Assembly: GCF_016026235.1 (NCBI RefSeq)
Contig: NZ_CP065613.1
Reading direction: 5' to 3' (one strand)
DNA length: 64,000 bases
Source: Escherichia coli
Lineage (GTDB): Bacteria > Pseudomonadota > Gammaproteobacteria > Enterobacterales > Enterobacteriaceae
Positions 6,375-39,750 of this stretch are shown here, in pieces (position 1 is the stretch's first letter; every line of letters starts with the position of its first letter). The position numbers and the translations under genes were made by a program. The notes below the pieces were generated by a model that had not been told where the DNA came from, did no database searches, and saw only the letters and a program-made list of their open reading frames with translations.

Positions 6375-6621
6375 TTGTTATACCTCTTGAATATTCCTGA
6401 TGGGGCAAGTCTTCACCCACCCCGGCTGTTCGGCCTGCCCGGCATAACTCCTCACCGGGACCAGAAGCAAAAAAATACCGACCCAGGTACAAGTCCCAGG
6501 TCAGCTACAATTCACATTTTGATAGTCATTTTACCCTGAAGTTCCCGAAGGGTCATCGTTTACTTTATAGGGCGTTGCGCCGTAGTATGACGGCTCGATT
6601 CCAGGTTGTTAGCGCGAGATT

Positions 6622-8082: not shown

Positions 8083-9507
8083 TAATGCCAGTCAGTTAAG
8101 CAACTGACTGGCTCTTTTTCGGGGCTGTGGGGTATTTCCAGGGCCTCTCCTTTACCACTCTCGGGAAGGCCCTTCCCCTTCTCGTCGGTAATTTCACAAG
8201 TTGTCCCATACTTGCAAGATCGCGCATCAGCTCCGGTATACGTCCCGGTGAAGCGCCCTGCAATGTCATCAGCATTCTCATCACCATTCCGCATGATTCT
8301 GAGAAACTCAGTTGATTCGGCCAGTAACCTTTCAGATGTTCCGCCATTTTAATCATCTGATATCTCACCAGATTATAAGCCAGTAAGACACCCCACAGCT
8401 CTTGCTCCACAAGCTCCGGCTTTTTACTTCTCAGCGTCAGCCTGCTCAGTTGCATCGTCTGTTTTATCTCCCTGTATCCCAGTTCGATTTCCCAGCGATG
8501 ACTGTACAGATCCGCCATTTCTCCTCCGGGGAAGCGCATGGCGTCCGTCATCGACGTCAGCAGATGGCAGACTTTTCCTTTGCGCGTCACGGTCAGCAGG
8601 CGGGCTGTCACTTCATTTCCCAGTCCCGGCCACTTTTTTCGTGCCTGCGGGCTGGTTTTCAGCTTCACCAGATGATCGCCTTTACCCAGTTTTCTGAGCT
8701 CTTCATATTGCGCTCCCTTTCTGAGAGGTATCATCCAGTGGCGGTGTTCTCCCGCCAGGCTCCAGGCATTTAACAGTCCCAGTGAGTAATAACCTTTATC
8801 CATTAACGTCAGAGTGTTATCGCCGGTTTGTTCTATAAGTTGCTCAGCAAGCTCATTTTCGCTGTTCTTCATCGTGCCGAAGGCTGCAGCCGTCAGCAGA
8901 TGGCTGGTCAGTTCCATCTGGCAGACCATTTTGACCTGCGGGTAGAGCGCCGGGTTCCCGGCATGTGTCTGGCGGGGAAGGCTGCATCGTTCTCTGGTGT
9001 ATCCGGTGTGCGCCAGAACACACCATCGATGGCCAGCAGGGTCAGGCCGCACCAGTGCGGATGCGGCGTGGCGTTATGCCAGAGCTGCGCTGTTTTCGTG
9101 AACACGCGGCGGACAGCCTCACTTCCCAGGCGCTGGCGGGCCTGAATAACGGCACTGGGGGCAACGAAGGGGCGATTGCCCGGCAGCATGATGTCCAGGC
9201 GATTCACAATCTGGTGAAGAGGTTCTTTACGCTCAAGCGCCATGCCAACAATACACCAGACCATCATTTCGAGGGGAAGACGGCGCTTGCGTAGCGTTAC
9301 AGTACCTGATTCGGCAAGGCAACGAGAGATGAGTTCGGGGTCGAGGTAATCCCCCAGAGAAGTCAGTGGGTTACGCAGAGAATCGTAACGGGATACCAGA
9401 TCAAGAGCCTGTCCAATGTGCATAAAAAAATCCGGAAACAAGTGAGCGTTTCCGGATTCTTACACAGCCACTGGATCGGTCAACTGATCCTTAACTGATC
9501 GGCATTA
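8083..9507 (-). mobile_element. Insertion sequence IS4 (IS4 family), 1425 bp, transposase gene disrupted
   Basis: Termini taatgccagtcagttaag at 8083..8100 and ttaactgatcggcatta at 9491..9507 are imperfect inverted repeats; internal ORFs translate to IS4 transposase InsG; flanked by a 13-bp direct repeat. Confidence 0.92.
8096..9423 (-). pseudogene. insG: IS4 transposase InsG, frameshifted: N-terminal part in one frame, remainder in another
   Basis: ORF 8908..9441 gives MHIGQALDLVSRYDSLRNPL...ENDAAFP then changes frame; ORF 8096..9052 continues [17 protein letters not shown]... to KKSQSVA; frames switch at a G4 run at 8974..8977 (C4 on the coding strand). Confidence 0.85.
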
Positions 9508-9520
9508 CGGCACATGGCCG
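9508..9520. repeat. Target-site duplication, right copy (cggcacatggccg), flanking IS4
   Basis: Identical to 8070..8082; removing the IS and one repeat copy restores the hairpin aaaaccccggc-acatg-gccggggtttt. Confidence 0.85.
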
Positions 9521-9532
9521 GGGTTTTGCTGA

Positions 9533-28035: not shown

Positions 28036-28760
28036 TCCAGCTGGTGTTGTTGCATAAACGGCTCACCGCCTAACTGATACATCTGCCGTAAAATCCACGC
28101 CTGACGGCTGCGCACGTAGCCCGATGGCGCGGAGACTTTGAAACGAAGTGGATTAGGTAATACAGCTGCCAGTAAGGCAGCTTCCGATCGGGTAAGTTTG
28201 CTCGCGGGTTTGTGGAAATAACGTTGTGCCGCAGCTTCGACGCCAAACACACCGTCGCCAAATTCGGCGATATTCAGGTAAACCGTCAGGATACGCTTTT
28301 TGCTCCAGACAGTTTCTATCCCCAGCGTTAATCCGGCTTCCAGCCCTTTTCGAACCCAGCTACGCCCATCCCATAAAAAGAGATTTTTGGCTGTCTGTTG
28401 AGAAATCGTTGAAGCACCGCGAATACGGTTTTCATTGCGCTCATTGTGCGCCAGGGCTTTCTCAATGGAAGCGACATCAAAGCCCCAGTGCTCAGGAAAT
28501 TTCTGATCTTCTGCGGCAATCACCGCCAGTCCCATCCACGGCGAGATTTGATCCATACTGACCCAGTCAGAATGTGCCACGTAACGAAAATTGCCATGCA
28601 GCCAGGCGCTGACCTGTCGCTCGACCATTACCGCTGAGAAGGGAACAGGCGCAACGCTAAACAACGCGATGCCCCCGCCCCAGTAAACGGCGAGGACAAC
28701 CATTAACCGCAGAAGAAAACGGCGAACAAAACTAAACACCGTTAAGCGGCTTTTACTCAT
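28032..28760 (-). CDS. mtgA: Monofunctional peptidoglycan glycosyltransferase MtgA
   Basis: ORF track 242 aa, ...[14 protein letters not shown]...[15 protein letters not shown]..., transglycosylase motifs. Confidence 0.94.
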
Positions 28761-29410
28761 TCAGCCAGAACCAGCACACGGGCAACCAGCTTATCAATGC
28801 CGCTCGCCGCTTCTGCAATGTTCTGCGCCAGCATATATGCTGGGGTGGTGACAATCTTATTGTCTTCATCAACCACGATATCATCGACAGGACACGGCAC
28901 ATGCTCCGCGCCCATCTCTTCCAGCACTTCTGCGGTATCGATATCAGTACCGATGGTCAAACGCAGCGGGAAATCGAAAATTTTCGGCAGCATCGCCGGG
29001 GCAATACACATAAAACCAAGCGGTTTTCCGGCCTGATGCATCGCTTGTGCCAGCGCCTTTAATTCACGGTCAACGGTGCATTCGCGACCAAGACTGGCAA
29101 AATTACTTAAATTCTTTGCCGCGCCAAACCCCCCCGGCACAATCAACGCATCCAGTTCAGCGGCATCGGCCTGGGCCAGAGGACGGATTTCACCGCGCGT
29201 TATTCGTGCCGCTTCAATCAGCACATTGCGCGTATCCGTCATCGCTTCGCCAGTTAAATGATTGATAACATCAACCTGCTGCTTATCAGGTGCAAAGCAG
29301 ACCGCCTGCGCACCGCTGCGTGAAATAGCTAACAACGTCAACACCGCTTCATGAATTTCAGAACCGTCATAGACGCCGCATCCGCTCAGAATTACGCCAA
29401 TTTTCTTCAT
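28757..29410 (-). CDS. elbB: DJ-1/PfpI-family glyoxalase-like protein ElbB (YhbL)
   Basis: ORF track 28757..29419; trimmed to [27 protein letters not shown]..., 217 aa. Confidence 0.92.
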
Positions 29411-29527
29411 TGTGATCATCCTTTCGCAATTGACTGAAACACATTAATTTTTTTAATAAAAATGGTACGCATCACACATTTAACTGATTCATGTAACAAA
29501 TCATTTAAGTTTTGCTATCTTAACTGC

Positions 29528-29648
29528 GTGCGGCCTGAAAAACAGTGCTGTGCCCTTGTAACTCATCATAATAATTTACGGCGCAGCCAAGATTTCCCTG
29601 GTGTTGGCGCAGTATTCGCGCACCCCGGTCTAGCCGGGGTCATTTTTT
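29528..29648 (+). ncRNA. arcZ: Small regulatory RNA ArcZ (SraH/RyhA)
   Basis: Sequence GTGCGGCCTGAAAAACAGTGCTGTGCCCTTGTAACTCATCATAATAATTTACGGCGCAGCCAAG... ends in the hairpin caccccggtctagccggggtc plus T6; lies between elbB and arcB, convergent with arcB. Confidence 0.9.
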
Positions 29649-31976
29649 AGTGGCTTTTGCCACCCACGCTTTCAGCACTTCTACGTCGTGACGCCACTCT
29701 TCTTTCATCTCTTCAATCCATTCACCGACGTTATCTTCCCAGGCAGGAAGGTCAGGAGACTGAATTTGCTGACCCAGCTGTTGCAGATGGCGTAACCCCA
29801 CTGACCCCGCCGCACCTTTAATTTTATGTCCTTCCTCAACAATGCCTTTTTTATCCTGCGCCGTCAGATTCGACTCCAGCACGCTGACATAGCCCGGCAT
29901 CATCTTCTCAAACACCGCTAACCCGTCGGTGATCAGCTTCGGTCCTACAAGTTCGAGATACTGTTCCAGCATGGGAATATCGAGCAATGCTTCTGATTTA
30001 CTGTTCTCTTCTGTCGTCACCGTACTCTCCTCATCATCCTGGGTATCCCAGAATTTCTTGATCATCGCGGTTAGCGCCGGAACAGAAAGCGGCTTACTCA
30101 GCACATCATCCATTCCAGCATTGAGGTACTCTTGTTTGTCTTTCAGCACGTTAGCGGTTAAGGCCACCAGCGGCGGTAAATCCTCTCGCGGATAACGCTT
30201 CGTCAGTTCACGAGAGATATCCAGCCCGGTCATATCTGGCAACTGAATATCCAGTAACACCAGGTCGTATTCGCCCGGTTTAAACATCTCTAGCGCCGCC
30301 TTGCCGGTCATGGCGACATCAACGCTGTTACCTAATTTTTCCAGCACAGAACGCGCGACAATCACGTTCAGTTCAATGTCTTCCACCAGTAGCACATTCA
30401 GCGCCGGTAAAGGCATATCGTCTTCATCAAACGCATCATCGACCTCTTCTGCCACCGACGGTGCGTGGATCGTCAACGTAAAGGTTGAACCTTTGCCCTG
30501 TTCGCTGGTAACCGTAATATCGCCACCCATATTTTTCGCCAGACGACGAGAAACGGCCAGACCAATACCGGTGCCGGTGGCAGGTTTACCGCCATGACTG
30601 TCTTTCACCTGGTAATACATGGCGAAGATTTTATCCAGCTCATCCTGCGGAATGCCGATACCAGAATCTTCCACTTCAAAATGCAGCATATCGCCTTCAT
30701 CGTAGCGCACGCGCACGGTAACCTGGCCTTGCTGGGTGAATTTGACGGCGTTACTGATGAGGTTCCACAGGATCTGCCGTAAACGCGTCCCGTCGGTAAT
30801 GACCTGATGCGGTAATGGCAGCGTAGGCTCCAGGTTAAAGCGCAATCCTTTTTGTTGCGCCTGCAATGCGGAGAGATTTTCCAGATCGGCAAGGAAGCTG
30901 GTGAAATCAACCGGCTGATTATCAAGCTGGACCTTGCGCCGTTCCATCTTATCCATGTCGATAATATCGTTAAAGATATTCCCCAGCGTGACGGCCGAAA
31001 CATGGATAGTTTTGAGATATTTTTCCTGCTCGGCGGTGAGTTCGGTATCCAGCAGAATGCGGCTCAGGCCGACGATACCGTTCAGCGGTGTACGCAATTC
31101 GTGACTGATGGTGGAGATAAACGTCGTTTTGTCGCGGCTGGCCCGTTCAAGCGCATCCTGATACCGCTTACGCTCGGTAATGTCGCGACCAAAGCCCATC
31201 AAACCGTGACGTTTACCCACGCGGTCGTAGTACGGCACTTTACGGATTTCAAAGCAGGCTTTGCGCCCGTCCGGGTAATCCAGCCACTGTTCATAGGTCA
31301 GTGACACATTATGACGGAACACTTTTTCATCGGTTTCAATGACTTTCGCAGCGGCTTCCGGTGAGTAAACATCAGCAGGTTTCAGATGAACCAGTTGTTT
31401 TTCGCTTTTTCCGGTCAGCAGCTCCATCGCGCGGTTACAGCCGGAAAACTCTTTATCTTCGTTACGATAAAAAACCAGGTCGGGTGAAGCATCAAGGAAG
31501 GAACGTAAGAATGAGGATTGCTGCTCGAGCTGAATTTGTGTCTCTTCGCGCTCTTTGATTTCAATTTTCAGTTGGCCGAAGGTTTCCTGCAGTTCTGCTT
31601 CCGCTTTTTCACGAACGGCAATTTCCTGATTTAGCTGGGCAATATTATCTTTTAACTGAACGTTGAGGCTCAAATCGCGCTCGCGCATCTCCTCCAGTTT
31701 TTGCACCAGCCGTGACAGACGTTGTCGTGACTCCTCCAGTTGCTCGACGACCACCGATAGAAAGTAGACCGCCCACGGCGTAATCAGCAAACCAAAGAAG
31801 ATAGAACGAATAACATCAATGCTTTCGACCTGACCATGCAGCACCATGGTTACCGCCATTTGTACCACAATGGCAAGAACGACGAGGGCCAGCGCCAGCA
31901 ACATTGAGAAGCGCACCAGACCTAACTTCATCATCAGGTCAACATAATACTGCGCCAGCAGACGAATTTGCTTCAT
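29640..31976 (-). CDS. arcB: Aerobic respiration control sensor kinase ArcB
   Basis: ORF track 778 aa, MKQIRLLAQYYVDLMMKLGLVRFSMLL...; HisKA H-box ISHELRTPLNG, receiver and Hpt domains. Confidence 0.96.
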   Translation of the reverse strand: MKQIRLLAQYYVDLMMKLGLVRFSMLLALALVVLAIVVQMAVTMVLHGQVESIDVIRSIFFGLLITPWAVYFLSVVVEQLEESRQRLSRLVQKLEEMRERDLSLNVQLKDNIAQLNQEIAVREKAEAELQETFGQLKIEIKEREETQIQLEQQSSFLRSFLDASPDLVFYRNEDKEFSGCNRAMELLTGKSEKQLVHLKPADVYSPEAAAKVIETDEKVFRHNVSLTYEQWLDYPDGRKACFEIRKVPYYDRVGKRHGLMGFGRDITERKRYQDALERASRDKTTFISTISHELRTPLNGIVGLSRILLDTELTAEQEKYLKTIHVSAVTLGNIFNDIIDMDKMERRKVQLDNQPVDFTSFLADLENLSALQAQQKGLRFNLEPTLPLPHQVITDGTRLRQILWNLISNAVKFTQQGQVTVRVRYDEGDMLHFEVEDSGIGIPQDELDKIFAMYYQVKDSHGGKPATGTGIGLAVSRRLAKNMGGDITVTSEQGKGSTFTLTIHAPSVAEEVDDAFDEDDMPLPALNVLLVEDIELNVIVARSVLEKLGNSVDVAMTGKAALEMFKPGEYDLVLLDIQLPDMTGLDISRELTKRYPREDLPPLVALTANVLKDKQEYLNAGMDDVLSKPLSVPALTAMIKKFWDTQDDEESTVTTEENSKSEALLDIPMLEQYLELVGPKLITDGLAVFEKMMPGYVSVLESNLTAQDKKGIVEEGHKIKGAAGSVGLRHLQQLGQQIQSPDLPAWEDNVGEWIEEMKEEWRHDVEVLKAWVAKATKK

Positions 31977-39567: not shown

Positions 39568-39750
39568 GCTCTGTCCCAGCGCCGCCTCCTCAGAAAAGAG
39601 TCGGCGCTGAAATTCTCCTTTCGTTCTGGAAAGCGCCTCGCATAATCTGAAGAAAACCAATGTAATACGCACATCTGGATTGTTACCGGCAGATGCCCGG
39701 CGTATAGCTGATTCCATTATTCAACACTGCGCCATATAAAGGGAAAGATA

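Follow-up and report, generated by a model that had tools for sequence, protein, structure and literature searches.

The window analysed here is a stretch of 64,000 nucleotides of Escherichia coli DNA (contig NZ_CP065613.1, assembly GCF_016026235.1). It carries the small RNA gene arcZ between two protein-coding genes of the opposite strand, in the order elbB (28757..29410, minus strand), arcZ (29528..29648, plus strand) and arcB (29640..31976, minus strand), with arcZ and arcB convergent. According to the open reading frame list and the K-12 annotation, arcB encodes a sensor histidine kinase of 778 amino acids; its product ends in WVAKATKK, and its TGA stop codon, read as TCA on the plus strand, occupies positions 29640..29642. 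The primary ArcZ transcript is 121 nt long. On the plus strand it reads GTGCGGCCTGAAAAACAG...CACCCCGGTCTAGCCGGGGTCATTTTTT from position 29528 and ends at 29648, the last base of a run of six thymines (29643..29648). The sequence, the open reading frame list, the terminator scan and the K-12 annotation all indicate that arcZ and the coding sequence of arcB overlap by 9 nt on opposite strands (29640..29648). These 9 nt comprise the arcB stop codon and two lysine codons.

ArcZ, also known as SraH or RyhA, is chiefly a trans-acting Hfq sRNA with targets including rpoS and flhDC. Its presence at this locus was established by scanning the whole window against Rfam at gathering thresholds. The ArcZ family RF00081 matched the plus strand at 29528..29635 over its full model (1-106 of 106), with a score of 120.8 bits (gathering score 66) and an E-value of 4e-27. 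The only other match in the window was the greA leader RF01769, located upstream of greA (6470..6591, minus strand, 124.9 bits). Since the RF00081 model ends partway along the terminator's 3' arm, at 29635, and has no terminator helix in its consensus structure, this match establishes the identity of ArcZ and not the overlap of its terminator with the arcB stop codon. That overlap was assessed with the terminator scan, the K-12 annotation and a comparison across species. A 62-amino-acid open reading frame starting with ATG (29462..29650, plus strand) extends over the entire sRNA and its promoter, and its TAG end uses the last T of the T-run. We took it as a mechanical reading frame.

In the annotation of K-12 MG1655, arcZ (b4450) lies at 3350577..3350697 and arcB (b3210) at 3350689..3353025 on the opposite strand. 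These coordinates project onto 29528..29648 and 29640..31976 of the window, and the 9-nt overlap is thus already annotated there, with the same elbB-arcZ-arcB synteny. Positions 29400..29720 are 100% identical to K-12, so that the promoter, the sRNA, the terminator and the 3' end of arcB have the same sequence in both strains and the locus shows no difference; the ArcB proteins do not differ by a single amino acid. Overall, the window is approximately 99.1% identical to K-12 and therefore belongs to a different strain, which makes the intactness of the locus a real and not a trivial result. The sequence-only reading had recognised the sRNA as ArcZ, convergent with arcB and intact in this strain, with the arcB stop codon at 29640..29642 and the T-run ending at 29648. 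All of this was borne out by the Rfam match, the open reading frame list, the terminator scan and the comparison with K-12.

The 281-nt locus was found in 5416 of 5426 complete E. coli genomes, at an identity of at least 99% in 5176. Elsewhere in the window, two larger differences from K-12 were observed. An insertion sequence of the IS4 family (8083..9529, about 1.3 kb), absent from K-12, separates dacB from obgE. Two reading frames make up its transposase, one of 177 amino acids (8908..9441, minus strand; Pfam Nterm_IS4) and one of 318 (8096..9052, minus strand; DDE_Tnp_1), and the element therefore looks frameshifted. In addition, about 7 kb of K-12 sequence downstream of gltD, comprising gltF, yhcA, yhcD, yhcE (with IS5) and yhcF, is missing at approximately 39570..39623. 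All that the window has at this junction is a stretch of 54 nt that finds no match in K-12.

The ArcZ terminator and the arcB strand beyond its stop codon

The terminator of ArcZ is the stem-loop ACCCCGGT-CTA-GCCGGGGT at 29622..29640 on the plus strand. In the terminator scan it has a stem of eight pairs, six of them G-C, and a loop of 3 nt, and it is followed by CATTTTTT. The same hairpin was recovered when the single sequence was folded. C29641 and A29642 form a spacer between the stem and the six-base U-tail, which on the minus strand reads as the final arcB lysine codons, AAA AAA. The arcB stop codon is thus located at the junction of stem and T-run, and only one of its three bases, T29640, takes part in the stem. 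The sequence-only reading had drawn the stem at 29621..29641, which adds one base at either end; these two bases, C29621 and C29641, are unable to pair with each other. Its further statement that the stop codon lies inside the terminator holds if the terminator is defined as stem plus U-tract; it does not hold for the stem proper.

The terminator scan returned one terminator-like match in 1.4 kb against a mean of 1.4 in shuffled sequences, which taken alone is not above chance. It is the position of the hairpin at the 3' end of the Rfam match, together with its covariation across species, that identifies it as a real terminator. Standard pairs account for 97.7% of the cells of the helix among 38 distinct hairpin variants. 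In the three inner pairs both partners have changed, from G-C to A-U and from C-G to U-A, so that pairing is kept, and no shuffle reached the covariation score of the helix. Sliding the 3' partner by 1-3 columns reduced the paired cells to at most 62%. Variation was never or almost never seen in the five outer pairs; T29640, which takes part in the closing A-U pair, also serves as the third base of the arcB stop codon. Covariation also distinguishes the two strands. Among the matches listed, G-U pairs, which would be A-C mismatches on the opposite strand, occur in 59 of 121 sequences and A-C pairs in 5, and the mean stability of the hairpin is 1.8 kcal/mol better on the ArcZ strand than on the arcB strand. 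The helix is thus a genuine terminator structure of the ArcZ strand.

The stem is nevertheless palindromic, and in the window it folds on both strands (-12.7 kcal/mol on the arcB strand versus -13.9 kcal/mol on the ArcZ strand). The hairpin might consequently serve arcB mRNA as well, as a bidirectional terminator or mainly as a 3' stabiliser, in which case the overlap with ArcZ would be limited to about 28 nt. We consider this distinctly improbable. The plus strand upstream of the stem reads GTATTCGCGC, so that a polymerase coming from arcB would meet GCGCGAATAC after the hairpin, with no T-run. The preference of G-U pairs for the ArcZ strand (59 sequences versus 5 with A-C) and the lower mean stability on the arcB strand point in the same direction. 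A bidirectional intrinsic terminator was rejected on the grounds that the minus strand has no T-run at this position and that no minus-strand terminator was called. Indeed, the terminator scan detected no intrinsic terminator on the minus strand within 28700..30100, and among 107 species no conserved minus-strand terminator was found after arcB, with weak matches at inconsistent positions in 22.

Since the minus strand offers no T-run, polymerases leaving arcB should go on through the DNA antisense to arcZ in the direction of elbB, a gene of the same strand. The absence of a minus-strand terminator points to a putative arcB 3' UTR, or read-through path, at 29411..29639 (minus strand), antisense to arcZ and its promoter. 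The annotated genes share 9 nt only, and any longer complementarity would be provided by this 3' UTR; judged from the sequence, the 3' region of arcB is very likely complementary to ArcZ. Literature searches for experimentally determined 3' ends of arcB mRNA, or for transcripts reading from arcB into elbB, gave nothing relevant.

The same lack of a terminator on the arcB strand can be read in another way. If arcB polymerases traverse arcZ and its promoter, as they should, the mutual repression of the two genes could mainly be transcriptional interference, through collision or occlusion of convergent RNA polymerases, and not RNA-RNA pairing. One source indeed states that arcZ 'is repressed by arcB transcription'. 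However, a reported effect of ArcZ, the destabilisation of arcB mRNA, is post-transcriptional (PMC3937726, PMC4281340). We therefore regard interference as the main mechanism as unlikely, and retain pairing between ArcZ and the 3' region of arcB mRNA as the preferred reading.

Conservation of ArcZ and of its overlap with arcB

The conservation of the locus was surveyed in one genome per species, using the exact 25-nt ArcZ core GGTGTTGGCGCAGTATTCGCGCACC as the search pattern, which yielded at least 120 loci in other Enterobacterales species. The genera surveyed include Escherichia, Salmonella, Citrobacter, Enterobacter, Kosakonia, Yersinia, Rahnella and Erwinia, and also Pantoea, Photorhabdus, Xenorhabdus, Proteus, Providencia and Morganella. 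Only genomes that carry this core unchanged could enter the sample, a bias that leaves out diverged lineages, among them Pectobacterium; Dickeya and Serratia are absent as well.

Within ArcZ, conservation among 114 distinct species sequences is poor in the 5' half and reaches at least 95% at positions 29593..29626 (plus strand). The search pattern forced only 29600..29624 of this core, and the unforced positions 29593..29599 and 29625..29626 nevertheless reach the same level. This 3' core, or seed region, constitutes the body of the processed form. The active ArcZ is described as a 3' fragment of about 56 nt released by RNase E processing (PMC11331407, PMC4152358), and the contrast between a conserved 3' part and a variable 5' part fits this description. 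With the size taken from the literature, processed ArcZ would span approximately 29593..29648.

In all 121 sequences examined (the matches listed plus the window), the triplet after the terminator's 3' arm is TCA (84 sequences) or TTA (37 sequences), and five to nine thymines come next. To place the arcB stop codon relative to this triplet, the C-terminus of ArcB was used as a tblastn anchor. Of the 120 loci that could be assessed among the matches listed, counting the window, about 101 (approximately 84%) end arcB on the same stem/T-run triplet, which makes arcB and arcZ overlap by 9 nt (14 loci), 10 nt (43 loci) or 11 nt (44 loci). These counts agree with the published statement that ten bases is the usual length of the overlap between the 3' end of arcZ and arcB, Pectobacterium being named among the exceptions (PMC11331407).

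The stop codon lies elsewhere in about 19 of the loci among the matches listed, mostly from Pantoea, the remainder from Mixta, Morganella, Pluralibacter and Chimaeribacter. Some of these displaced stops leave an overlap of 0-2 nt at the end of the T-run and others a gap of 4-10 nt, which reaches 58 nt in Chimaeribacter; in one Pantoea species, arcB ends inside the hairpin loop, giving an overlap of 23 nt. One locus scored as different, L084, seems to keep the frame and to be interrupted further upstream. Loci where arcB stops elsewhere (L015, L024, L029, L033, L037, L047, L071, L091, L092 and L110) also retain TCA or TTA after the stem. Its retention may reflect a constraint on ArcZ itself, or shared ancestry, most of these loci being from Pantoea.

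The existence of about 19 species with a moved arcB stop indicates that the overlap of the coding sequence is common but dispensable. Judged from the sequences compared, the constant feature is the convergent adjacency of arcZ and arcB. These observations bear on whether the 9-nt overlap is a regulatory element at all. It could have arisen simply because the genes are tightly packed, with the arcB stop codon and the two lysine codons making use of the complement of the U-tail; control would then be exerted by ArcA-P at the arcZ promoter and by whatever arcB 3' UTR extends through arcZ. Among the matches listed, the stop has shifted by 6-21 nt (68 nt in Chimaeribacter) in about 19 of the 120 assessable loci, with arcZ still convergent and adjacent, and the T(C/T)A triplet is kept even where it no longer ends arcB, as would be expected from packing. 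Moreover, ArcZ phenotypes in Klebsiella are reported in the literature to be complemented from another locus, so that ArcZ acts in trans there. On the other hand, the same triplet serves as the stop in about 101 of the 120 assessable loci among the matches listed, in several families, and reviews ascribe the effect on arcB to the cis-antisense overlap (PMC3937726, PMC4281340, PMC4152358). We consider packing a possible explanation of the 9 nt, though clearly the less probable one, and the cis-antisense reading is kept in what follows.

The arcZ promoter and the region upstream

A putative sigma-70 promoter for arcZ was read by eye and from conservation at 29493..29521 on the plus strand. It consists of a -35 hexamer GTAACA (29493..29498), a 17-nt spacer with a TG at 29513..29514, and a -10 hexamer TATCTT (29516..29521). 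With 8 of 12 positions it fell below the threshold of 9 in the sigma-70 consensus scan. T29516, A29517, T29521 and the TTTG at 29511..29514 are nonetheless all at least 95% conserved among the 114 distinct species sequences. The promoter sequence is that of K-12, and the start site, G29528, was taken from the K-12 annotation and the literature.

Upstream of arcZ, a conserved block overlaps the -35 hexamer (29471..29500, plus strand), with most positions at least 95% conserved in the same 114 sequences. ArcA-P is reported to bind at the promoter of arcZ, and the literature also mentions a 'conserved ArcA binding region' (PMC11331407 and another source). On the basis of this literature and of its conservation, the block probably contains the ArcA-P operator. 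The ArcA-box pattern TGTTA-N6-TGTTA, searched for at a minimum of 8 of 10 positions, gave no match within 29380..29560.

In other E. coli, insertion sequence IS1 was found within the arcZ promoter at two different sites; the promoter in this window is uninterrupted. In E. coli HSP60 (L124, 2233..3000), the IS1 target duplication TTGCTATCT is in the -10 box, at a site corresponding to window positions 29512..29520. In the K-12 laboratory derivatives C600, RV308, NEB Turbo, GM4792, DTU-1 and CV601, IS1 lies 5 nt further upstream than in HSP60; in C600 it occupies approximately 773..1540 of L125, and the site corresponds to 29507..29514. Both insertions part the conserved upstream block and the -35 hexamer from the -10 hexamer. 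An IS1-arcZ junction is carried by 58 of 5426 genomes. Regarding the K-12 strain ER2796, one paper called arcZ 'missing'.

Mutual regulation of ArcZ and arcB

The arrangement described above is already known, both from the K-12 annotation and from reviews of ArcZ. ArcA-P is reported to repress arcZ, ArcZ represses arcB, and arcB mRNA 'is speculated' to be an antisense RNA on ArcZ (PMC11331407). ArcZ has likewise been presented as a 3'-end antisense RNA of arcB, with mutual negative regulation (PMC4152358), and is said to 'destabilize[s] antisense arcB mRNA' (PMC3937726). Regarding the silencing of arcB by binding at the junction of coding sequence and 3' UTR, the mechanism 'remains to be determined' according to PMC4281340. 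The arrangement had also been put forward, in the initial reading, as the known basis of reciprocal ArcZ/arcB regulation. This is indeed how the literature presents it, with pairing as the speculated mechanism. The accompanying claim that the two transcripts are complementary over their 3' ends stands for the 9 nt shared by the annotated features, and would extend further by way of the arcB 3' UTR.

From these elements, the following course of events can be proposed. ArcZ would be transcribed rightwards from the sigma-70 promoter at 29493..29521, starting at G29528, and transcription would end at the stem 29622..29640, with its CA spacer and the T6 tract that ends at 29648. arcB would be transcribed leftwards, its last two lysine codons and TGA being the complement of the ArcZ U-tail and spacer. 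Transcription of arcB would then continue into the DNA antisense to arcZ, producing an arcB 3' region perfectly complementary to ArcZ over at least the terminator and possibly over the whole sRNA. According to the literature, ArcZ would act in cis as a 3'-end antisense RNA that lowers arcB mRNA. In turn, ArcB, by way of ArcA-P, would repress the arcZ promoter, and arcB transcription or arcB mRNA would lower ArcZ further, which together would make a mutual-repression switch. We infer the arcB read-through, the RNA-RNA pairing and the resulting decay or take them from the literature, and for the complementarity beyond 9 nt and the pairing mechanism this literature is secondary. Altogether, we are highly confident that the window contains the canonical, K-12-like arcZ-arcB locus of E. 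coli with its cis-antisense mutual-repression switch.

The position of the stop codon suggests a further and far more speculative layer. Among the matches listed, the two lysine codons and the stop are tied to the ArcZ U-tail and the base of the terminator in about 84% of species, so that a ribosome terminating on arcB would cover the hairpin. Such a ribosome could conceivably sit on the arcB-strand hairpin, melt it and thereby gate the pairing of ArcZ with arcB, in which case arcB translation, and not transcription alone, would set the decay of both RNAs. If this were true, the translational link would be uncoupled in the species with a moved stop (Pantoea, Mixta, Morganella). We consider this gating very improbable, and the switch proposed above does without it.

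These results mean that a non-K-12 strain possesses an intact ArcZ/ArcB switch, linking oxygen and redox sensing to RpoS. To what was known of the locus, the present analysis adds the frequency with which arcB stops at the terminator junction (about 84% of the sample listed), strand-specific covariation evidence for the terminator, and corrected coordinates for its stem.

The geometry of an overlap is by itself no proof of regulation, since two other cis-encoded sRNAs that overlap a 3' UTR behave differently. GadY is likewise a convergent sRNA complementary to the 3' end of the mRNA of its neighbour, gadX. GadY, however, stabilises gadX mRNA, and ArcZ, by contrast, lowers arcB mRNA (PMC4281340). 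McaS and abgR display the same 3'-overlap geometry, yet McaS has no reported effect on abgR mRNA (PMC4281340).
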